From assembly GCA_041650755.1 (NCBI GenBank), contig JBAZKN010000004.1, positions 4,624 to 68,623 on the forward strand: a stretch of DNA of 64,000 nucleotides, given 5' to 3'. The notes beneath the pieces were generated by a model. The model was not told where the DNA came from. It ran no database searches and was given only the letters and a program-made list of their open reading frames with translations. Within the stretch, counting starts at the first letter, position 1, and every line of letters starts with the position of its first letter. A program made the translations under genes and the position numbers. The stretch is from Patescibacteria group bacterium (lineage in GTDB: Bacteria > Patescibacteriota > Patescibacteriia > UBA1558 > GWA2-36-10). This document shows positions 1-41,169 of this stretch, one piece after another.

Positions 1-40
1 AATATCGAAATTAGACACAATTTTTCCGCCCCAGAAAGAG

Positions 41-781
41 ATGCAATTATTTTTTATAGCAGCGCTTGAGGGCTATCTTAGCAATAGTGTATATAAAGAT
101 ATATTTGAAGCGCTCAAAAAGGTATATTGGGACGCCATAGTATTATTAGGAAAAAATCAAGATAAGGCTGGTTATAGAGTAGCTGATATTGATGAGCGTT
201 TGCCTCAGCATTTAATGGTGGTTTATATTCGCGATTCAAAACACGATGACCTAATACAACATTTCTTTTCGGATGCTCCGGCTAAAGTCCGGGGGCAGGC
301 TATTAATTTCCTGGGTAGAGTAATTCTGCGCGAGGTTTCTGGTTACGCAGATAAAGAAATTGTTGTTGAGAGAATCGGTAAGCTTTGGGATCAGAGAATT
401 TCTTCCTCTGGAACTACCGAGACCGAAGAACTTCAAGAGTTTGGATGGTGGTTTAAACAGAGTCCTTTTGGTCGCAAAAATACTATTGATAGGCTCTTGA
501 AAACCCTAAATGTCTCTAAGGGAATCATTGATGTCGCTTACGAAATTATTGAGGAGCTGCAAGAATATGCCCCCGAACTTCCTATAGAAACTATTACGGT
601 ATTAGATTTGATAGCTCGTGCCGAGCGAGAATATCATGAATTTTCTTATAAAAAAGAGGAATACAAGGAAATTATTCGCCGAGTAAAAGCGACTGGGAAT
701 GAAGAGGCGATCCAAAAAGCTAATGAACTGATTAATTTTTTGGGATCAAAAGGGTTTATTGAATTCAGAGAATTACTATAA
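41..781 (+). CDS. Hypothetical protein, first gene of a 4-gene cluster. The reading frame stays open to the window edge, so it may extend upstream.
   Basis: 246-aa ORF with AAAGAG upstream of the ATG at 41 and no stop between pos 2 and 41. It overlaps the next ORF by 23 nt, suggesting coupling. No recognisable motif. Confidence 0.5.
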   Translation: MQLFFIAALEGYLSNSVYKDIFEALKKVYWDAIVLLGKNQDKAGYRVADIDERLPQHLMVVYIRDSKHDDLIQHFFSDAPAKVRGQAINFLGRVILREVSGYADKEIVVERIGKLWDQRISSSGTTETEELQEFGWWFKQSPFGRKNTIDRLLKTLNVSKGIIDVAYEIIEELQEYAPELPIETITVLDLIARAEREYHEFSYKKEEYKEIIRRVKATGNEEAIQKANELINFLGSKGFIEFRELL

Positions 782-2339
782 ATTTATGGCTAATATAAAA
801 ATCCAAACTTCATCTGATATTGAATTTTCTAGGAACTTTACCATCGAAGATTTTAATAAAACGGTAAAGGATTTTGACCTAGTAGGTTCATTAATGTCTC
901 TGCAAAAATTAGGAGCGCTCATGGGAAATCAGGTTGCCGTAAATGTAAACTTGGAATTTGAATTCTATGCTTCACCTAAAATAAAACAGAGAGCCGGCAT
1001 GCTAACGAGGGATTTTGTTTCTTTTGCTGCAAAATACATTTTATTGAACTGCAAAAAACAAGAGCTACAGTACAATGATGTAGACTTGGCAAGTTTGGTT
1101 TATCTATATGGGAACTTGGAAATTGACCTTCATAAATTAAAATCCGGAGAAGAAACAAAAAAGAATGGCTGGCTTTGGGTCGTTAGGTCAACAAATCATC
1201 AATGGTATTATCTTAGATTTCACTCAAGCATTATTGCACGATATTATTGGATTTTTTCCAAAGTTTTTGAAAAAAACGAAATGCTTGGACAAAAATTGAA
1301 CCAAGCGTTGGATATGAATGTTTTTGATGCAATGAAGATTGGGACCTGCATCTACGCTAATTTCTGTCCACGAGAGGATGGTAAGTTTGCAACGTCGTTT
1401 TTGATGGATAGCTATACAAAAACTTCGATATTGGAATTAAGGCCATTGCTAACTGAACAAAATATCTTGAGATATTTTGATGTTTTTGCTATTACACAAA
1501 AACAGTTTCAAGAAGAAAACAAAAAGTTTGAGCTTGCGGATGACTCTTTGAAAAAGTACGAATTTAACCCTCTCAAAAGGTTCCCCGTAATCAAGACTGA
1601 TTCAGAAAAAAAGAATGAACAATATATAATCCCATCTCTCTCTGATTTTTTGTATGGCGCGTTTGAGGGCCTTTATTATGTTCTCTTAGATAAGTTGGAT
1701 GAGGCTGATAAAGCGACTTTACTTCAAGAAATTGGGAGTGTTTTCGAAATGTATATTGGAGAATTCTTAAAACAATACAACATTGATATTCTTAGTCGGG
1801 CTGTAATATTTCCGGAAAAAATATACAAAATTGGCTCCGATGAATGGAAGACCGTCGACTGGCTATTGGTTTCAGATGAGTACATTTTTCAGATTGAATG
1901 CAAGAAGAGAAAAATTGATACTTACTCGAAAGCAGGAATTCAAAGCGAGAATGGTACCGGTATTGATAATTTATTGGGAGATGTAGCTAAAGAGCTAGAT
2001 AAGATAGCTGAGAAAGAGAAACATATTAAGGAGAATAAAGTTGAGGGCGTAGCTTATAATGGCCAAAAAATTATTAATATGATTGTCTTTTTGGATGAAA
2101 TGTTTGGCATGAATGACTATGCTAGAGAGAAAATTAAAGAAAAGATGGAACAGCCTAGTAATAATTTTTATATATTTGGTTGCTGGGAATTTGAATTAAT
2201 ATGTCAGCAATCGAAAGACAAACAACAGAATTTGTTTTATTCAATTCAGGACTTAATCGCTGGTAGAGTAAATATTTATCACATTGATTTTCTTGATCGG
2301 GTTTACCATAATTTTTTTGATTCTATAAAAAGTACATAA
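759..2339 (+). CDS. Hypothetical protein with a PD-(D/E)xK-like nuclease motif
   Basis: 526-aa ORF. The segment TVDWLLVSDEYIFQIECKK (nt ~1853-1910) fits a hydrophobic-D ... hydrophobic-ExK pattern with 16-aa spacing. No Walker motifs seen. Translationally coupled to its neighbours. Confidence 0.6.
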   Translation: MNSENYYKFMANIKIQTSSDIEFSRNFTIEDFNKTVKDFDLVGSLMSLQKLGALMGNQVAVNVNLEFEFYASPKIKQRAGMLTRDFVSFAAKYILLNCKKQELQYNDVDLASLVYLYGNLEIDLHKLKSGEETKKNGWLWVVRSTNHQWYYLRFHSSIIARYYWIFSKVFEKNEMLGQKLNQALDMNVFDAMKIGTCIYANFCPREDGKFATSFLMDSYTKTSILELRPLLTEQNILRYFDVFAITQKQFQEENKKFELADDSLKKYEFNPLKRFPVIKTDSEKKNEQYIIPSLSDFLYGAFEGLYYVLLDKLDEADKATLLQEIGSVFEMYIGEFLKQYNIDILSRAVIFPEKIYKIGSDEWKTVDWLLVSDEYIFQIECKKRKIDTYSKAGIQSENGTGIDNLLGDVAKELDKIAEKEKHIKENKVEGVAYNGQKIINMIVFLDEMFGMNDYAREKIKEKMEQPSNNFYIFGCWEFELICQQSKDKQQNLFYSIQDLIAGRVNIYHIDFLDRVYHNFFDSIKST

Positions 2340-2364
2340 TAATCAAGGAACGGAAATTAATTAT

Positions 2365-3093
2365 ATGAATGGTGTTAAAAAATTTCTTAGGAGAACAGAA
2401 ACCAGTTTAATACAATTCTTTTTGTATGTTGGGGCTTTAATATATCTATTGGTAACGGGCCATGGCTGGCTTTCGGTTGTCTTCGTCCATCTCTTTTTTG
2501 TGGTTATCTATGGCATTATTTATTTCAGAGAAGATTTTTTATTGTTTTTCCTTTCGCCTGTAACGGCAATAATTTTCCCCATCCAAAATTACCTTTTAAG
2601 AAAATATTTAAAAAAATTTAAACAAAATATTCCAACAGAGGCGGTTATTGTTTTAGGGCGATCTGACTGGTTCAAGCTTGAAGCTTGGATTAAACATAAC
2701 TTTCTCAAGAGTGAAATTGAATCACTTATTAGATACTTGAAAGCAAAAGGCCAGGATTTTTCCTTTTACCCAGATGCAGATTTAAAGGATATTGAAAAAA
2801 TTATGAGTGATAAGAATATAAAAGAAGTGTATTTTTTCGGACACGGGACTTCGCATGTATTTCAACTGAGTGCCGATAATTATTTATATTATTGTGATTT
2901 TAATGATCAGCATAAATATGGGAAAGAATTTGTCCACCAGGTACACTGTGGCACCTCGGACGGAAAAAGCTTAGTTGATTATGTCGTTCCTAAAGAAAAC
3001 CAAAATGGATGCTTTCTTTTCAGAAAACCTATAAATTCCTTTGACATTCAAAAGGAGTTCAAAAGAAGGACTAAAAACTTAATAAAAAAATGA
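2365..3093 (+). CDS. Membrane-anchored hypothetical protein with a putative His/Cys motif
   Basis: 242 aa. The N-terminal ~90 aa are strongly hydrophobic (2-3 TM). The C-terminal domain carries EVYFFGHGTSH ... FVHQVHCGTSDG, which resembles a beta-strand-HG / beta-strand-xCxxSG catalytic dyad arrangement (speculative). Stop overlaps the next start (ATGA). Confidence 0.55.
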   Translation: MNGVKKFLRRTETSLIQFFLYVGALIYLLVTGHGWLSVVFVHLFFVVIYGIIYFREDFLLFFLSPVTAIIFPIQNYLLRKYLKKFKQNIPTEAVIVLGRSDWFKLEAWIKHNFLKSEIESLIRYLKAKGQDFSFYPDADLKDIEKIMSDKNIKEVYFFGHGTSHVFQLSADNYLYYCDFNDQHKYGKEFVHQVHCGTSDGKSLVDYVVPKENQNGCFLFRKPINSFDIQKEFKRRTKNLIKK

Positions 3094-4001
3094 AAACTTT
3101 TACTGTTAACGATATAGATAGTCTCCAAAAGGAATTTTACCAGATGTACGATCCGGATTATTGGCTATACAGAATAATGCTTTTGAAGAACTCCCACGAC
3201 GATTTCGATCAACTCAAGTCAAGCTTAACAAAAAATACAGAAAAGACAATTGATAAAGATTTTAGACGGGTAATGCGGACCGAAATGCATTTTCTTTACT
3301 TTCAAATGATTGAAACTTTGTTCGAGATAATCTTTGCTGTTTCGGAAAGTGATAATCGGGATTTATGGTTAGCGCTCACCTTTTCTGATTTTAGGAATAA
3401 TTACAAAAAGATTGCGGAGTTAAACGACCGATCTGAAATTTTTATTGAGAGGATAAAGACCGAAGTAGATGGAAAGCAAACGGAAGTTCCTGCCCTAAGA
3501 TGGATTTTTTATTTTATTTATCCGTCGAAGTTAAGCGATGGGGACTGGATAAAAAATTTAGAAAATATCAAGCGATTGCTTTTGACTTTTGCTCGGGACT
3601 TTTCTGACAGAGGAGAATATAACGCCTATAAACATTCGCTCCGTTTCTATAACTCTCCGTTTTCTATGGCTATCGGTATAACCGGTAGCAAACAAACGCA
3701 TTCGTTGGGTTCGTCTGAAGATTGCATTACATTCCTTGAGGAGCAGAAAAAGATAGATTCAGATGGTAAATTGCAGGCTACCGGCCAAATCATGAGGACC
3801 CAAAAACCCTTTGACTTTCAAAGGGATTATGAGAGATGTATTTTAATCTATGCTATGATTAAAAATATCATCTATACCAGAAAATATACGATCTTAAATG
3901 AGCTACACGGCCAGAATTTCGCAATGGCCAATTTTGTTGATTTGGATTTTTATAAGACTGCTTTTTCTGGGGGCGTAACGAAGTCTAGCTTTACTGCTTA
4001 G
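3090..4001 (+). CDS. Hypothetical protein, last gene of the 4-gene cluster
   Basis: 303-aa ORF with a 4-nt overlap to the upstream ORF. No recognisable motifs. Confidence 0.55.
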   Translation: MKTFTVNDIDSLQKEFYQMYDPDYWLYRIMLLKNSHDDFDQLKSSLTKNTEKTIDKDFRRVMRTEMHFLYFQMIETLFEIIFAVSESDNRDLWLALTFSDFRNNYKKIAELNDRSEIFIERIKTEVDGKQTEVPALRWIFYFIYPSKLSDGDWIKNLENIKRLLLTFARDFSDRGEYNAYKHSLRFYNSPFSMAIGITGSKQTHSLGSSEDCITFLEEQKKIDSDGKLQATGQIMRTQKPFDFQRDYERCILIYAMIKNIIYTRKYTILNELHGQNFAMANFVDLDFYKTAFSGGVTKSSFTA

Positions 4002-4002
4002 G

Positions 4003-4153
4003 TTACTCAATCCAATCAAACGGCGACTCATGGCGGAGCATTTTGACGGCCGCGTCCATTTCGTAGGAGTGCCAGCCGTTCATGATTACGGTTCTAAGTT
4101 CACGCACGGCTCTGAGCCAACAAAAAAAATGTAACGGATAATTTTTTAAGCAT
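4003..4153 (-). other. Small GC-rich ORF or gene remnant (about 50 aa, MLKKLSVTFFCWLRAVRELRTVIMNGWHSYEMDAAVKMLRHESPFDWIE)
   Basis: A roughly 110-bp GC-rich patch (4010-4120) sits in an AT-rich spacer and is readable on the minus strand as the C-terminal end of an ORF. No SD. Could be a pseudogene fragment. Confidence 0.2.
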
Positions 4154-4349
4154 GATTTTAATTTTATAAATATAAACTAAAGATGGCTACCATCTTGTTA
4201 ACTACTAACCAGGCTAAACCGCTATGATCATACCCAAATTGGTAGTTAACAAAAATTAATCAAAAACTGCCTACGCTATAATGGCAACAACCGATATTAA
4301 AATTATTTTTAAAACGAAACCATTTATAAAGAACCAAAAATTCTTATTT

Positions 4350-8071: not shown

Positions 8072-8099
8072 AAAAAAGACCGTTTCCGCAGAAACGGCC
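8072..8099 (-). terminator. Rho-independent terminator for the GC-rich ORF 8128..8679
   Basis: GACCGTTTC-CGCA-GAAACGGcC hairpin flanked by an A-run on the plus strand, which is a T-run on the minus strand. Confidence 0.5.
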
Positions 8100-8127
8100 T
8101 GTGCGTGCGCGAAACCACGAGGGCCCG

Positions 8128-8679
8128 CTACATGGGAATGCGCTCTGACTTGAAAGGCGGAGCCTTGTCGTCGGGCACCGGCAGCTGCCAAGTCCAGAAG
8201 CTGGAGTCCTCCAGAGAGGCGAGAGTGTGTCGAGCCGAAGGATCGGCTATGTGCAGGGAACCGGGCAGCAAGATCGAGCTATTGCCCAGCAGCGCATCTC
8301 TGTCGCTGCTGCAAAACCGCGACAACATCTGTCGAACCTGCTCAACTGTCAAGGTCTCGTGCTCGACGGCCAACAAGGCACCCTCGATGACACAAGTGAT
8401 CTCCAGACAGGTGCCATTGTGGCCGTGAAACTCTTGCACACAACCACCGGGCAGAATGGTGTGGATAGCCTGAGCCTGGACATTGAGGCGACCGATGATC
8501 AGCCCCTTGAAATAGGACCTGACCTCCACGCCGCCCTTCTGAATCATCTGGACGACATGGAGCTCACCGCGGACATCGTCTGGCTGCAAACGACACGAGC
8601 GACCAATATCTTCCCTACCCAAGCGATGATCAATGACGAGCCAACCAAGAGGTGGTTGAGTATACAGCATCGAGCTCAT
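8128..8679 (-). CDS. Hypothetical protein encoded in GC-rich island 1
   Basis: 183-aa ORF with GGGAGGG SD 5-6 nt upstream and a terminator downstream. High GC with a G/C-rich third codon position. The strand choice is uncertain because long ORFs exist on both strands. Confidence 0.35.
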   Translation of the reverse strand: MSSMLYTQPPLGWLVIDHRLGREDIGRSCRLQPDDVRGELHVVQMIQKGGVEVRSYFKGLIIGRLNVQAQAIHTILPGGCVQEFHGHNGTCLEITCVIEGALLAVEHETLTVEQVRQMLSRFCSSDRDALLGNSSILLPGSLHIADPSARHTLASLEDSSFWTWQLPVPDDKAPPFKSERIPM

Positions 8680-8896
8680 TGCAACGCCCTCCCGTAAAGT
8701 TATTCTTGGAATGTTCGAACGTGGACATATTAAATTATAATATCTTTAGAAAATTGTCAATAATATCCAATGTTTTTTATATAGTCAAATGACTTTACTT
8801 TTTCTTTTAAAAATGGGAAAATTAAAATAGTTTCTAAGAGACATATCGGCTGCACTGGCAACAATCGTAAACTCAAACCCTGCCTCAAATAAAAAA

Positions 8897-10879: not shown

Positions 10880-11425
10880 ATGGATCGAGAGATTTTGGAT
10901 CAAAAAATAAGAAAGGTGCCCAATTTTCCTAAAGACGGGATTCTATTTTATGATGTCACTACTTTATTTGAAGACAAAGATACTTGGCGACAGTTGATCG
11001 ATGAGCTTTGCTGGCCATATCAGGATAAAAAAATAGATAAAATAGTCGGCATTGATGCTCGCGGATTTTTATTGGCAGCCGCCATGGGCTACAAACTGGG
11101 CACCGGTATTTCTTTGGTCCGTAAAAAGGGCAAATTGCCCTACGCCACAAAACAAGCCACCTATGAAAAAGAATATGGCCCAGATACGGTAGAAATGCAT
11201 GCCGACACTATTCGACCAGGAGAAACTGTTTTGATAGTTGACGACTTACTAGCTACTGGCGGGACAATATTGGCTGCCATTGATTTGGTGGAACAAATGC
11301 AAGGAAAAATTATCGGCCTTGAATTCATTATTAATTTGTCATTTTTACCCGGCTTAAAGAAACTGCAAGCCAATGGATTTGTGCCACATTATTTAATCGA
11401 TTATGATAATGAAAAAATTAAATAA
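10880..11425 (+). CDS. apt: Adenine phosphoribosyltransferase
   Basis: LIVDDLLATGGT PRPP-binding motif. Real start is MDREILD at 10880, inside the longer predicted ORF. Confidence 0.8.
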   Translation: MDREILDQKIRKVPNFPKDGILFYDVTTLFEDKDTWRQLIDELCWPYQDKKIDKIVGIDARGFLLAAAMGYKLGTGISLVRKKGKLPYATKQATYEKEYGPDTVEMHADTIRPGETVLIVDDLLATGGTILAAIDLVEQMQGKIIGLEFIINLSFLPGLKKLQANGFVPHYLIDYDNEKIK

Positions 11426-26800: not shown

Positions 26801-27055
26801 ATGTATAAATTATATATAATTCGAAGTCTAAAAACAAAAAAATACTACATTGGTATTAGTGCAGATTTGGAGCAAAGGCTACGTCACCATAATAGTGGGG
26901 CAAATAAATCTACTAGAAATGCTAAACCCTGGACAATAGTGTATACAGAGGAATTTAATGATAAAAAATCGGCATGGTTAAGAGAAAGACAAATTAAAAA
27001 ATATAAAAGCGGTGAAGCATTTAAAAAATTAATCAATCGTGGAGAGGTCGCATAG
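26801..27055 (+). CDS. Small GIY-YIG nuclease superfamily protein
   Basis: YKLYIIRSLKTKKYYIGISADLEQRLRHHN matches the GIY-(x10)-YIG ... R ... H(H)N core. 84 aa. Its last 15 nt overlap the tRNA-Ser. Confidence 0.65.
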   Translation: MYKLYIIRSLKTKKYYIGISADLEQRLRHHNSGANKSTRNAKPWTIVYTEEFNDKKSAWLRERQIKKYKSGEAFKKLINRGEVA

Positions 27056-27131
27056 TTGGTCTAGTGCGCTCGCTTGGAAAGCGGGTAGGGTGTCAAAGCC
27101 CTCGCAGGTTCGAATCCTGTCCTCTCCGCCA
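27041..27131 (+). tRNA. tRNA-Ser (anticodon GGA), class II with a long variable arm and an encoded CCA
   Basis: Manual cloverleaf: GGAGAGG/CCTCTCC acceptor, 3-bp D stem, CTCGC/GCGGG anticodon stem with loop TTGGAAA, 17-nt variable arm, TTCGAAT T-loop, G discriminator, CCA. Confidence 0.85.
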
Positions 27132-35006: not shown

Positions 35007-36770
<1,764 letters not shown>

Positions 36771-36780
36771 ACGTAAAAAA

Positions 36781-37056
36781 TTATTCAACGACAGCTAACA
36801 AGTCCTCGTGGTTTAATATCTTGTACTCCGCACCATCAATCTTAATCTCCGATCCGCCGTATTCAGAAAAAACGACCTTTTGTCCGATTTGCAAATTTAA
36901 TTTAGAAATTTTTTCACCGGCTCCGACAGCCACTATCTCACCTTGGGAGCGAGATTCTTTATTGACTGTGTCCGGTAAAATAATGCCGCCTTTGGTGGTT
37001 TCTTCTTTGGGTAATGGTTTGACAACTACCCGATCGCCTAGTGGTTTTAACTTCAT
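36781..37056 (-). CDS. groS: Co-chaperonin GroES
   Basis: MKLKPLGDRVVVKP ... 91 aa. Start trimmed to the conserved N-terminus. Confidence 0.9.
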   Translation of the reverse strand: MKLKPLGDRVVVKPLPKEETTKGGIILPDTVNKESRSQGEIVAVGAGEKISKLNLQIGQKVVFSEYGGSEIKIDGAEYKILNHEDLLAVVE

Positions 37057-37082
37057 ATTATTTTTATACTTAAAATTAATGA

Positions 37083-37109
37083 TTAGCACTTTGTATTTTA
37101 GAGTGCTAA
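37083..37109. promoter_or_regulatory. CIRCE operator (HrcA binding site) upstream of groES
   Basis: TTAGCACTT-N9-GAGTGCTAA, a near-perfect match to the CIRCE consensus TTAGCACTC-N9-GAGTGCTAA. Confidence 0.8.
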
Positions 37110-37123
37110 TAAAAAATTGTCAA
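37095..37123 (-). promoter_or_regulatory. Sigma-70-type promoter for groES-groEL overlapping CIRCE
   Basis: On the minus strand, TTGACA-N17-TAAAAT. Confidence 0.55.
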
Positions 37124-37179
37124 GAGAATGTAATACTATATCACAAAATAATCAAAATAAAACGAAGTAAAAATAAAGG

Positions 37180-37208
37180 TTGACAAAAAAATATATTTAT
37201 GCTATTAT
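37180..37208 (+). promoter_or_regulatory. Sigma-70-type promoter upstream of the NfeD-like/flotillin pair
   Basis: TTGACA-N17-TATTAT lies in host-like AT-rich sequence immediately before the GC-rich island. Confidence 0.45.
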
Positions 37209-37378
37209 GCAACGTTTTGGCTAAACGGCAAAAATGGAGCCTTTGGTTAGCCAAGGGGTTCCTTAAAAGTCATACATCATTGTTGTTCAGCATCGATATC
37301 TGCACACTCAAGGTGCCAGTAGACAGGACGCAGCAATTCAACACTGCTGCCGGTTTCTTCCAACGAAAGGGGTCTACG

Positions 37379-37978
37379 ATGCTCGCAGTCCTGGCAATGA
37401 CCTTCTGGCAAAAGCTGGGGAACGACATCGGAATGATGGTGTTCGCTGCCCTGGCGATGATCGGTGGGGTCTTCACCTTGATCTCCATGATCTTCGGTCA
37501 TGGCGACCACGACGTCGGCCACGACTTCAGCGCGGGCGACCACGACTTCAGCGCGGGCGACCAGGATGACAGTGCCGGCTCGAACTTCTTCTCGGTTCGC
37601 AACATCATGCTCTTCATGACCGGATTCGGCGGCATCGGCATGCTGGCCAAGTACAAGGGCGCTGACTTCATCGAGAGCAGCTTCTGGGGCGCTTTCTCTG
37701 GCCTCATCATGGCGTTGATCGGCTATCTGATCTACCGCGCTCTCTACAAGAGCCAGGCCTCGTCGCACATCGACAACTCGATGTTGCGCGGTTCAATCGC
37801 GCAAGTGGAAGAGCCCATCGTCCAGAACGGCGTGGGCATCATCGTGGCCGGGGGCGAGATCAACCACATCGTCCGCCTCCGAGCCAGAACCAAGGAGGGC
37901 ACGCCGGTCCCGAGTGGCCGCCAAGTCCGCATTCTGGAGGTCAGCGGCACCGAAGCTCTGGCCGAAGCGCAGCAGTAG
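37379..37978 (+). CDS. NfeD-like membrane protein (flotillin partner)
   Basis: GAAAGGGG SD. Two TM helices, an acidic HDFSAGD repeat, then a C-terminal OB-like domain (GVGIIVAGGEINHIVRLRARTK ... RQVRILEVSGT). High GC. The supplied ORF's upstream extension is probably untranslated leader. Confidence 0.6.
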   Translation: MLAVLAMTFWQKLGNDIGMMVFAALAMIGGVFTLISMIFGHGDHDVGHDFSAGDHDFSAGDQDDSAGSNFFSVRNIMLFMTGFGGIGMLAKYKGADFIESSFWGAFSGLIMALIGYLIYRALYKSQASSHIDNSMLRGSIAQVEEPIVQNGVGIIVAGGEINHIVRLRARTKEGTPVPSGRQVRILEVSGTEALAEAQQ

Positions 37979-38042
37979 TCTACACCACCCACCCAACTCC
38001 ATCCAGTGAAGGAGACGAGTCATAGAGCAGGCAACCCACCTC

Positions 38043-39788
38043 ATGCAGTACCTGATCCCGGCGATCGTACTGTTCGTACTGATCGCCTTCGGCGGTGTGA
38101 TCCGTCTGGCGGCCAGGAATTACATCAAGGTCGCGCCCAACGAGGTCGCGATCGTGTGCGGCAGCCGGCACAGGACCTCGGTCATCGTACCCGGCCAGGC
38201 AGAGCCGAAGAGCGTGGTTCGAGGCTTCAGGATCGTCACCGGCGGTGCCTTCTTCAAGATCCCGATCCGTGATCGGGTCGAGATGATGAAGCTGAACCTG
38301 ATGCAGATCTCCGTTCAGGTCGTCAACGTGCCTGACATCAACGGCGTGCGCATCTCGGTCAAGGGCATCGCGAACCTCAAAGTCTTGTCGGACATGGCCT
38401 CGTTGGTCCTGGCCGTCGAGAGGTTCCTGGGCTTTGGCCTGGATTACATCGAGAAGGTAGCCAAGGAGAACCTGGAGTCCAACCTCCGCGCAGTCGTCGG
38501 CAAGATGGCCGTGGAGGAGCTGATCCGTGACCGGACCAAGCTCCAGCAGATGGTCACCGAGGAAGCGGTCCAGGACATGGCCAAGATGGGCTTGGGTCTG
38601 GATCTGATGAACGTCCAGGAGATTTCGGACGAGCAGGGGTACATCGAGGCCTTGGGCAAGAAGAGGACGGCCGAGATCAAGCGCAACGCCACCATCGGCG
38701 AAGCCGAAGCCCTGCGCGACGCCGCCATCAAGTCGGCCGAGGCCAAGCAGGCCGGCGAGACCGCCAAGGCGGCCGCCGAGCAAGCCATCAGCGACGCGAA
38801 CAAGGACATGGACGTGCGCATCGCCGAGAACAATGCCACGGTGCAGGCTCAGAAGGCCAGGATTCCGATCGTCGCCAACCAGGCCGCGGCCGAGGAACAG
38901 CGGATCCTGAACGTCAAGCTGGTCGAGGCCGACAAGGCCAAGACCGAGGCCGAGATCCTGCTGCAGGAAGCGGCGCAGAAGCGACGCGAGGCCGAACTCG
39001 ACGCGACCACGATCATCGAGGCCCAGAAGAGCAAGGAGGCCAAGATCATCGAGGCCGACGCCGAGGCGCAGGCCGCGGAACGCAAGGGCGAGGCCTACCG
39101 CATCCAGCACTCCAAGGAAGGCGAGGGCAACCAGGCCAAGCTGACCGCCGAGGCCAAGGGTCGCAAGGAAGCGGCCAGTGCCACTCAGGCGGAGCTGGTA
39201 GCTCAGGCCGAGGGCAAGAAGGCCGGACTGCTGGCCGACGCCGAGGGCAAGAAGGCCGGACTGCTGGCCGACGCCGAGGGTGTCAGGCAGACTGGTCTGG
39301 CTCGTGCTGCGGGCGTCGAGGCCGTCGGTCTGGCCGAAGGCAAGGCGTCCGAAGCCAAGGCCGCGGCCTACAAGCAGTTGGATGGCCAGGGCATGATGCT
39401 CATGTTCATCCAGCAGTCTCCCGAGGTCATCGAAGCCCTCGGCAAGGCCATCGGCAACGCCATCGCGCCGTCGGCGAACGCCATCGGGCAGGGCCTGGCC
39501 AACATCCAGGAGCTGCGCATGGTGGATCTCGGCGGCGGAATGTCCGGTTCCGCCGGCAAGGACAACATCCTGGGCCAGTTCACCAAGATGCCGATCGAGA
39601 CCATCTACGGCTTGGTGGAGCGGATGAAGGCCACGGGCATGGCTCCGGCCATCATCAAGCTCGCCAAGGACAAGTTCGGGCTCGATCTCGAGTCCGTGTT
39701 CGCCGGCGCCCCGAACCCGAAGCAGTCGCCGAGCGGTCGGGATGCCACGCATCCGGAAGGTGATGATGGCACCGCTGCCGCGGCTTAG
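38043..39788 (+). CDS. Flotillin (SPFH/band-7 domain protein, FloT/YuaG-like)
   Basis: N-terminal hydrophobic hairpin, an SPFH domain, and a long Ala/Glu/Lys-rich coiled coil with EA repeats. High-GC codon usage. Confidence 0.8.
   Translation: MQYLIPAIVLFVLIAFGGVIRLAARNYIKVAPNEVAIVCGSRHRTSVIVPGQAEPKSVVRGFRIVTGGAFFKIPIRDRVEMMKLNLMQISVQVVNVPDINGVRISVKGIANLKVLSDMASLVLAVERFLGFGLDYIEKVAKENLESNLRAVVGKMAVEELIRDRTKLQQMVTEEAVQDMAKMGLGLDLMNVQEISDEQGYIEALGKKRTAEIKRNATIGEAEALRDAAIKSAEAKQAGETAKAAAEQAISDANKDMDVRIAENNATVQAQKARIPIVANQAAAEEQRILNVKLVEADKAKTEAEILLQEAAQKRREAELDATTIIEAQKSKEAKIIEADAEAQAAERKGEAYRIQHSKEGEGNQAKLTAEAKGRKEAASATQAELVAQAEGKKAGLLADAEGKKAGLLADAEGVRQTGLARAAGVEAVGLAEGKASEAKAAAYKQLDGQGMMLMFIQQSPEVIEALGKAIGNAIAPSANAIGQGLANIQELRMVDLGGGMSGSAGKDNILGQFTKMPIETIYGLVERMKATGMAPAIIKLAKDKFGLDLESVFAGAPNPKQSPSGRDATHPEGDDGTAAAA
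39207..39272. repeat. Perfect 33-bp tandem duplication inside flotillin, with a partial third copy
   Basis: GCCGAGGGCAAGAAGGCCGGACTGCTGGCCGAC occurs twice, encoding AEGKKAGLLAD x2. Confidence 0.85.
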
Positions 39789-39837
39789 TAGAACAGACCG
39801 TCATTGACGGGATGATCTCATAGCTGGGTAGCTCTAT

Positions 39838-39872
39838 AGGGGGCAAGGTCCCACGACCTTGCCCCTTTTTCT
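39838..39872 (+). terminator. Rho-independent terminator after flotillin
   Basis: GGGGCAAGGTC-CCAC-GACCTTGCCCC followed by TTTTTCTTTT. Confidence 0.75.
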
Positions 39873-39873
39873 T

Positions 39874-41169
39874 TTACTTATTAAATTGCCGAGAAAAATT
39901 TATAATAGCAAAAAATAAAATACATAAGCCCACCCAAGAAGTCCAAAGATAGTGATCAAATAATCCTAAAGCTAAAACACTGATCAATAAACTAAAGCCA
40001 AAAAAATCCGGCTTGATTTTTTTTCTAAAAAATCTCCAAAGCAAAAATACCAAGCTCAAAAAACCAATTAAGCCGATTTCCCCCAGAGCCAGCAGATAAA
40101 TATTATGAATCGGCTGAAAGTCATAAGACATTTTATGCTTTTGCTCTGACTTTGCCCAGGCCACAAAAGTATTGGTGCCCAAACCTTGACCCAAGATCAC
40201 TTCTTTGGGGTTGCGCCAATTGATCTGTTGCCAGGAGCTGATCCTTTGACTGGTAGAAATATCTTCTAAGCGCCCCCTGGACTCGATCCGATTCAGCCAG
40301 GCATTGGGTAAAAAATAATTTATCAACAAAATAGATAAAATCAACAGTACAAAATATTTGATAATGATTTGCCGCCACAAGTTTAGCTTGTTTTTTAGAC
40401 TAAAAATAAAAATCAACAATATAAATACTAGCAAAGCTAGTAAAGCGCCACGAGAAAAGGTCAAAGCTAGCCCGGCAGTTTGCAGAACTAAGGCAATAAT
40501 AACAATGATTAGATGCCACCAGCTTTTTTTCATGAACTCCCTTGACCACTGACTGTTTTCGCCAGCCTGATAAATCTTTTGCCACCAATAAACGCTGGCA
40601 ACAATGCTGACTAGCAAAAATCCGCCCAAAACATTGGGATGAGTAAGCGCTCCATAAGCTCTTAGCCACCTTTGATCGCCAACCTGCACTACTGACGCGC
40701 CCGGATCTTTGGCTAGATGCTCGGCTAATCCCAGCCACTTATCAGCGGATATCTTTTGGCTAAAAAATTGCCCGATAGCCAGGACAGCTTGTCCTGTGCC
40801 GCTAATAAGCCAAGCTAAAGACAAAAAATCCCAGCTAAATTTTTTACTAAGCAGGGCAAAAAGCAAAGCCAGAATCACCAAGCCTAGATAATAAAAACTT
40901 ATTAACGGCCAGCTGGAAAAAATGGAAATCAAGACTAGGTAAAATAAAAAAATATACAACCATTTGTTTTTTGACCAAGCCAATCTTGGTTTTTGACTAA
41001 AAAAATTCACGACTAAGGCAGCTAATAAAATTATCATGCTGCCATAAAAGCTCAAACGGCCATACTCCCAAACCTGACCGCCTAAACTGGCATCAAAAAA
41101 TATCCATCTGGTCTGCCAGGGCAGCGAAACAATAAAAAGAAAAATAAAAATTTTAGCTAATCTATGCAT
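39874..41169 (-). CDS. O-antigen ligase / Wzy_C-like polytopic membrane protein
   Basis: About 12 TM helices. ALTHPNVLGGFLL resembles the Wzy_C H...G.G...F motif. Start taken at MHRLAK (41169) to avoid overlap. Confidence 0.5.
   Translation of the reverse strand: MHRLAKIFIFLFIVSLPWQTRWIFFDASLGGQVWEYGRLSFYGSMIILLAALVVNFFSQKPRLAWSKNKWLYIFLFYLVLISIFSSWPLISFYYLGLVILALLFALLSKKFSWDFLSLAWLISGTGQAVLAIGQFFSQKISADKWLGLAEHLAKDPGASVVQVGDQRWLRAYGALTHPNVLGGFLLVSIVASVYWWQKIYQAGENSQWSREFMKKSWWHLIIVIIALVLQTAGLALTFSRGALLALLVFILLIFIFSLKNKLNLWRQIIIKYFVLLILSILLINYFLPNAWLNRIESRGRLEDISTSQRISSWQQINWRNPKEVILGQGLGTNTFVAWAKSEQKHKMSYDFQPIHNIYLLALGEIGLIGFLSLVFLLWRFFRKKIKPDFFGFSLLISVLALGLFDHYLWTSWVGLCILFFAIINFSRQFNK

Follow-up and report, generated by a model that had tools for sequence, protein, structure and literature searches.

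Do the closely packed genes at the left end of this sequence make up one defence system or several? The stretch in question, hereafter the window, comprises 64,000 nucleotides (nt) from a Patescibacteria group bacterium (assembly GCA_041650755.1, contig JBAZKN010000004.1, positions 4,624 to 68,623), and its first 4 kb carry four genes on the plus strand, here called genes 1 to 4. An initial annotation made from the letters of the sequence had described them as a tightly coupled four-gene operon and a candidate novel defence or accessory system. Our data support the reading as defence or accessory genes, whereas the single coupled system does not hold, as the four genes are not conserved together. 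Instead, positions 1-4135 probably represent the right-hand end of a mosaic defence island that is composed of independent, co-oriented modules.

Conservation of the four genes as a unit had been set beforehand as the test by which a single system could be refuted, and the genes failed it. Among 16 loci with gene 2 homologs, tblastn searches with the other three genes recovered gene 1 once (in locus L001) and genes 3 and 4 never. A hidden Markov model search of 80 loci with gene 4 homologs placed a member of the gene 3 family directly upstream in three (L020, L023 and L027) and a member of the gene 2 family in none, and six independent contexts of gene 3 held neither a gene 2 nor a gene 4 homolog. 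Given that the four genes are not co-conserved and that each occurs elsewhere with different neighbours, a mosaic rather than a single system is the model we favour. The cargo genes of such an island would be independently mobile, co-oriented and probably co-transcribed.

The tight spacing, from which co-translation had been deduced, does not speak for coupling, because the same 4-nt overlaps occur with unrelated genes. In one locus lacking gene 4, a gene 3 homolog with 72% identity shares 4 nt with an unrelated HsdS gene, and gene 4 homologs often overlap, stop on start, with many unrelated upstream genes, which argues that tight spacing is a trait of these genomes. The genes upstream of gene 4 homologs include a nuclease of the Mrr type with a transmembrane (TM) helix and a zinc ribbon, behind which gene 4 homologs at 75-78% identity are found, as well as an nSTAND3 protein, a trypsin-like protease and unknown proteins of 500-900 amino acids (aa). 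We also considered that these upstream partners might be hidden gene 3 homologs and rejected this idea, as the commonest of them (family F2) is the TM-Mrr_cat nuclease with zinc ribbon.

All four open reading frames (ORFs) of the initial annotation are present on the plus strand (41, or 2, to 781; 759, or 786, to 2339; 2365-3093; 3090-4001), and some of their borders had to be redrawn. Gene 1 (2-781) contributes 259 aa, the C-terminal end of a protein about 1185 aa long, gene 2 (786-2339) encodes 517 aa (MFA5127129.1, WC465_04020), gene 3 (2365-3093) 242 aa (MFA5127130.1) and gene 4 (3090-4001) 303 aa (MFA5127131.1); genes 2 to 4 correspond to WC465_04020-04030 at NCBI, each annotated as hypothetical. 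The overlap of 23 nt previously drawn between genes 1 and 2 is an artefact of choosing the TTG at 759 as start. The true start is the ATG at 786, on which all homologs and the NCBI record agree (homologs of 518 aa open with MANIKIQ), leaving a junction TAA-attt-ATG with a 4-nt gap. Genes 2 and 3 are separated by 25 nt, not 26, with AAGGA inside the gap, and the 4-nt overlap (ATGA) of genes 3 and 4 was drawn correctly. No terminator-like sites were found on the plus strand between the four genes, and promoter-like sites in the stretch are no more frequent than in shuffled sequence. With a guanine-cytosine (GC) content of 0.347, positions 1-4000 form the lowest of sixteen 4-kb bins (window mean 0.419). 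Beyond the four, the next genes are encoded on the other strand, and thioredoxin-type CxxC motifs were read from their translations by eye and not by profile search, in agreement with the redox neighbours noted earlier. The statement that no protein matched a nameable family is wrong for gene 2, as searches of all four proteins in Pfam, PADLOC, PHROGs and NCBIfam returned one useful match, that of gene 2 to GapS1; the other three have no match in these databases. Sequence-profile searches of the PDB with the gene 2, 3 and 4 families and with a full-length gene 1 homolog gave no match.

Gene 2 matches the NCBIfam profile NF047931 (antiphage_GapS1) with an E-value of 1e-12 and 47.7 bits over profile positions 78-431 of 455, so that 354 of the 455 positions are aligned, and the same profile is matched by 20 of 22 diverse members of the gene 2 family (best E 8.9e-18). 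The PD-(D/E)xK signature that the initial annotation had pointed out is borne out, as D358...E371-C-K373 (517-aa numbering; codons at nt 1857-1859, 1896-1898 and 1902-1904, respectively) is invariant in 22 homologs, with E371-C-K373 lying in the motif QIECKKRK. There is also a weak match to NERD, and nothing significant in Pfam, PADLOC or PHROGs. Distant relatives (19-25% identity) are present on Streptomyces and other plasmids, one of them annotated as a nuclease-related domain protein, and no meaningful match was obtained against phages. The neighbours of gene 2 homologs are different in all 16 loci; the homolog is alone in L010, L014 and L015, and some homologs lie between genes of the opposite strand. 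Judged by profile and motif, gene 2 is thus a deeply diverged GapS1-like protein outside the curated family, and it likely combines sensor and nuclease in a single protein.

GAPS1 (GMT-island anti-phage system 1) is a single protein in which D313 and K328 are essential; it is triggered by the T7 capsid protein and the outcome is dormancy (Mahata et al., bioRxiv 10.1101/2023.03.28.534373). The distance of 15 between these residues equals that between D358 and K373 in gene 2, a comparison by spacing and not by residue alignment. Further likeness is seen in the length of about 500 aa, the C-terminal PD-(D/E)xK site and the occurrence in defence islands as a lone gene whose neighbours change. However, about 78% of the GAPS1 homologs identified are from Klebsiella pneumoniae genomes (bioRxiv 10.1101/2023.03.28.534373), whereas the branch to which gene 2 belongs is separate, deeply diverged and mainly patescibacterial. 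By analogy with GAPS1, we speculate that the N-terminal two-thirds of gene 2, module B of the island, would sense a phage protein, and that the C-terminal D358/E371/K373 site would cut nucleic acid and so halt growth; the trigger, the target and the outcome are all extrapolated. In L011 and L012, two contigs of metagenome-assembled genomes of Candidatus Peribacteria, the ORFs called with table 11 around the gene 2 homolog are fragmented and tblastn nevertheless aligns the homolog at full length; this fragmentation may be an artefact of a frameshift-rich assembly or of ORF calling.

Gene 1 had been delimited as a gene of 246 aa, which is wrong, since its frame is open back to base 2 of the window; the accompanying suspicion that it might be longer upstream was justified. 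Its 259 aa are 79.5% identical to residues 927-1185, the C-terminus, of an ORF of 1185 aa on the related metagenomic contig L001 (6439-9996), and this match together with the open frame indicates that gene 1 is a fragment of a far larger protein truncated at the window edge. As the window does not include the N-terminus of its own gene 1, the head of the protein was judged from the L001 homolog. Searches of Pfam, NCBIfam and the PDB sequences with this full-length homolog gave no match, and its first 266 aa or so have no significant family match. Three plasmid-encoded proteins share their C-terminal parts with its residues 267-1184; the alignment to a P-loop ATPase protein of a Halocatena plasmid covers residues 267-1061 (E 3e-44), a protein of a Legionella plasmid is matched with an E-value of 6e-38, and the helical residues 566-1008 align to the C-terminal part of the 'SIR2 family protein' WP_063676537.1 of B. 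thuringiensis pBMB267 (E 2e-16).

This C-terminal homology to proteins with different heads suggests that gene 1 ends in a large helical, sensor-like domain that is combined with exchangeable N-terminal heads, such as SIR2 or a P-loop ATPase. The gene 1 homolog has the large helical C-terminal domain in common with such exchangeable-effector proteins, among them the pBMB267 protein, but it carries neither of their heads, having no SIR2 match and no Walker A motif. A SIR2-type defence protein is not supported as an identity for the L001 homolog, as it lacks an N-terminal SIR2 domain and only the helical part is shared. The domain layout would be compatible with a sensor carrying an exchangeable effector as module A of the island, and it presumably resembles that of the defence-associated sirtuins DSR1 and DSR2.

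Gene 3 was initially described as a membrane-anchored protein with a His/Cys dyad-like motif, and both features are found in its family, which has hydrophobic N-terminal helices and a C-terminal domain with an invariant YFxGHG (H160) and HQxHCG (C195). The hydrophobic segments of the window protein fall within residues 12-56, and the two residues, encoded at nt 2842-2844 and 2947-2949, are invariant in 28 sequences. More than 150 homologs were listed, mainly from Patescibacteria and also from Pacearchaeota and Caldisericia; tblastn against plasmids gave no match. An AlphaFold2 model with a predicted local distance difference test (pLDDT) score of 90.3 consists of helices at residues 2-82 and an alpha/beta domain at residues 93-241, in which H160 follows the strand 154-158 and C195 the strand 189-193. 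In clan CD proteases, the catalytic His and then the Cys are located at the ends of adjacent beta-strands. The best Foldseek match in the PDB is the SAVED-CHAT protein 8tl0 (E 1.5e-3, probability 1.0), and further matches are to caspases 7, 3, 6 and 11, the gingipain RgpB and legumain. Sub-threshold matches to Pfam CHAT (PF12770) are seen in 8 of 28 family members (best E 0.0048), and none in the window protein.

According to the model, the C-terminal domain of gene 3 adopts a caspase-hemoglobinase alpha/beta fold with an H160/C195 dyad, making the protein a putative membrane-anchored, minimal caspase-fold (CHAT-like) protease. It shares with SAVED-CHAT and other clan CD proteases the fold and the invariant His-then-Cys order after beta-strands. 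Unlike CHAT proteases, it is minimal (about 150 aa), has no SAVED, tetratricopeptide repeat (TPR) or other sensor domain, and instead carries N-terminal membrane helices, usually with no cyclase or CRISPR partner. A cyclic oligonucleotide-based antiphage signalling system (CBASS) was considered and dismissed, as none of the four window proteins matches a cyclase family; a single gene 3 homolog (L100) does follow SAVED and SMODS genes. As module C of the island, gene 3 would be a membrane-tethered protease that might cleave host or phage proteins upon infection, both its activity and its defence role being read from fold and context. In three loci from distant genomes (L102:5007-7735, L104:5526-7747 and L105), a gene 3 homolog lies divergently beside a large serine recombinase, together with a ParB-N6_N4 methyltransferase gene and conserved genes of 492 aa and 141-149 aa, which suggests a conserved integrative element with gene 3 as cargo.

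Gene 4 encodes a soluble, enzyme-like protein. Its family is large, with 137 close homologs listed and 409 clusters at 50% identity in a profile search, and has no consistent Pfam match; gene 4 itself has no match in Pfam, NCBIfam, PADLOC, PHROGs or the sequences of the PDB, and tblastn against plasmids and phages gave none either. The AlphaFold2 model (pLDDT 86, predicted template modelling score 0.85) is helical in its N-terminal part, with an antiparallel sheet formed by residues 191-240 and a long helix at the C-terminus, and Foldseek found no match to it in the PDB (best E 0.8) or in BFVD. Across 120 diverse members, E75, F78, Y177, N178, K181, H182, R185 and R264 are conserved to at least 93% and D246 and R174 to at least 82%, and the conserved polar residues look like an active site. 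Eight distant relatives carry the domain at their N-terminus followed by long TPR arrays, with one weak match to the TPR-S 'sensor' among them. Since these relatives join the same domain to sensor-type repeats, we propose that gene 4, as module D, would be an enzymatic effector with a fixed polar constellation of E75, N178, K181-H182, R185, D246 and R264, and hence a candidate stand-alone effector. The layout of the eight relatives is that of TPR-fused effectors such as GAPS6, which combines TPR with PINc (bioRxiv 10.1101/2023.03.28.534373). However, the window protein has no TPR, and the gene 4 domain matches no known effector family, be it HEPN, PIN or PD-(D/E)xK, in the searches run.

Two more specific identities for gene 4 were tried and rejected. 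A HEPN protein is not supported, as R174 and H182 are separated by 7 residues and so do not satisfy Rx4-6H, there is no Pfam match, and hhalign comparison with neighbouring HEPN_AbiU2 and AbiV proteins gave probabilities below 1%. A gasdermin-like substrate of gene 3 is not supported by any fold match in the PDB or by co-occurrence, which is rare (3 of 80 loci). Beside gene 4 homologs in islands of Patescibacteria, small TM-anchored Mrr-type endonucleases recur (L024:6300-6998, L025, L026, L029, L035 and L017:6244-6840), built of an N-terminal TM helix, an Mrr_cat domain and, in most of them, a C4 zinc ribbon, which the L017 member lacks.

Where the neighbours of the homologs can be annotated, they are often known defence genes. 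Next to gene 2 homologs, L001 contains AlwI restriction-modification genes and a LexA-S24-Dam fusion, and L002 contains GmrSD, a Dcm methylase, R.HinP1I and Vsr; next to gene 4 homologs, Mrr is found in L017, and type I restriction-modification, nSTAND3, HEPN_AbiV and a resolvase in L018. The contexts of gene 3 homologs include a CBASS with SAVED and CD-NTase genes, with the homolog at the operon end, type I restriction-modification with a KAP NTPase and a serine recombinase, HEPN_AbiU2 with DUF4238, Alw26I restriction-modification, type I restriction-modification with AAA_13, and, around the HsdS-overlapping homolog, type I restriction-modification with SduA_C, WYL and NYN. When 149 neighbours of gene 2 and gene 4 homologs were pooled and searched with Pfam and PADLOC, the top families were Mrr_cat, NA-iREase1, methyltransferases, ResIII, HSDR_N, integrase, resolvase, ZorD-like, type IV restriction endonuclease, type IIG restriction-modification and PDC-S02. 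The distribution of the families is patchy across phyla and both domains of life (Patescibacteria, Elusimicrobiales, Bacillota, Caldisericia, Methanobacterium and Pacearchaeota). Pattern scans of viral contigs revealed no relative of gene 2 or gene 3 and one distant relative of gene 4; as the families are essentially absent from viral contigs, they are best regarded as cellular genes.

Immediately behind gene 4 lies a conserved, GC-rich element (4003-4135, minus strand), which coincides with the GC-rich gene remnant that had been described within an AT-rich spacer, both of which are real (GC 0.55 at 4020-4125 and 0.26 at 4126-4349). Between 80 and 110 nt of it recur with 77-93% identity in five other loci, after arrays of differing content (L001:12079-12160; L020:10877-10918 and 10958-11048; L021:7951-7987; L022:1629-1723; L023:9863-9918). 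In L021 and L022 it directly follows gene 4 homologs; in L001 it follows an array of gene 1, gene 2 and a 166-aa gene, with no gene 3 or gene 4; in L020 it lies 3 kb past gene 4, behind extra genes and with a second, partial copy; and in L023 it again follows extra genes. The element is thus a common right-hand boundary that ends variable arrays.

On the minus strand it reads as a 3' gene fragment that encodes about 30 C-terminal aa (...LRAVRELRTxIxNGWxSYExDAAVxML, then stop) and has no 5' part; where the copies differ, the changes are synonymous or conservative. Searches of plasmids and phages did not recover the parent gene, and the genes past the element differ between loci, save one common to L020 and L021. 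A structured RNA, for which neither an Rfam match nor covariation was seen, and a part of a syntenic core, which would not fit the differing flanks, were both rejected as explanations. The element may instead represent an att-like scar or mark where a mobile element ends. The shared end would be consistent with cassette-like gain and loss of genes at a recombination hotspot or mobile-element end.

Two other explanations for the locus deserve consideration. All four genes, or the pairs of genes 1 and 2 and of genes 3 and 4, could be true multi-component defence systems in this lineage, in which, for example, the large gene 1 protein senses infection and activates the gene 2 nuclease, or the gene 3 protease processes or activates gene 4. 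Such an arrangement, which we regard as unlikely, would agree with the common strand, the 4-nt gap, the 25-nt gap and the 4-nt overlap with no plus-strand terminator in between, and protease-plus-substrate pairs are a known defence design. It would also agree with the recurrence of both pairs, which counts against fully independent modules: genes 1 and 2 are joined by an identical 4-nt junction in L001, and genes 3 and 4 by the same ATGA overlap in L020, L023 and L027, with a different gene upstream of the pair in every case. As such, the recurring pairs may reflect two-gene cooperation within this lineage. However, the pairs are confined to close relatives (78-89% identity for gene 4, 94% for gene 2), and the gene 4 homologs at 75-78% identity already stand behind the TM-Mrr nuclease instead, just as the 72%-identity gene 3 homolog follows HsdS with the same 4-nt overlap and no gene 4. 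Moreover, gene 2 homologs occur alone with opposite-strand flanks, GAPS1 acts as a single protein, and no known substrate fold, gasdermin-like or otherwise, is seen in gene 4.

Alternatively, the genes might not be immune genes at all, being other cargo of mobile elements (addiction or toxin modules, inter-bacterial toxins or functions in element maintenance) or, in the case of genes 3 and 4, housekeeping genes of the envelope or of metabolism. Serine recombinases, integrases, transposases and ParB-methyltransferase genes are common among the neighbours, and an end element kept across loci points to a mobile unit. In addition, gene 3 encodes a membrane protein, and no role has been assigned to gene 4. 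We nevertheless find a non-immune function quite improbable, as the patchy spread across phyla and domains fits housekeeping genes poorly, the immediate neighbours are mostly of the restriction and Abi type and not of conjugation or secretion, and gene 2 has a homolog whose anti-phage activity was proven by experiment. Several further points weigh against a mosaic defence island: gene 2, at 47.6-47.7 bits, remains far under the GapS1 cut-off of 320 bits; PADLOC, named in the initial annotation as a check, matches none of the four proteins; the fold matches of gene 3 are modest (E 1.5e-3 to 3e-2, TM-scores of about 0.3-0.4); the frequencies of defence neighbours are raw counts with no background control; most neighbours of the homologs are unannotated, and some are housekeeping genes (PEPCK, AICARFT, tRNA synthetases). 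Besides, assigning a defence role to any of the four proteins goes beyond what their homology, folds and motifs state.

Within the mosaic defence island that we favour, genes 3 and 4 might be the founders of new single-gene anti-phage families, spread throughout Patescibacteria, exchanged across phyla and domains, and residing in a cassette-type hotspot ended by the element of about 100 nt, a proposal that we put forward tentatively and consider possible rather than probable. Bacteria of the candidate phyla radiation have tiny genomes, and their known immunity consists mostly of restriction-modification. Standard tools such as PADLOC and Pfam see nothing in this region, in which a deeply diverged family of GapS1-type nucleases is now seen to be represented in these bacteria. 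The unannotated gene 3 and gene 4 families recur inside restriction and Abi islands and are as such candidates for defence genes, and the shared end element may help to find further cassette arrays. In addition, in genomes this compact, 4-nt overlaps and tight spacing should not be taken as evidence of a multi-gene system.

Elsewhere in the window, the sole Rfam match is an 88-nt tRNA at 27041-27128, long enough for the type with a long variable arm; at a distance of 23 kb, it shows no evident connection with the island. A patch of 600 bp at 8090-8710 stands out by a GC content of 0.52-0.58 in a genome of about 0.40 and contains long ORFs on both strands (8128-8679, minus, 183 aa; 8227-8697, plus, 156 aa). 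A structured RNA was rejected for this patch, as folding z-scores are about 0 on both strands and there is no Rfam match, and the patch probably represents a gene of foreign origin that encodes a protein on the minus strand; its cupin-like reading was made only by viewing the sequence by eye. A second compositional outlier, at 36000-40000 (GC 0.544 versus a mean of 0.42), has no Rfam family at gathering score, and here two near-full-length ORFs overlap on opposite strands, one at 37980-39752 on the minus strand (590 aa) and one at 38043-39788 on the plus strand (581 aa).

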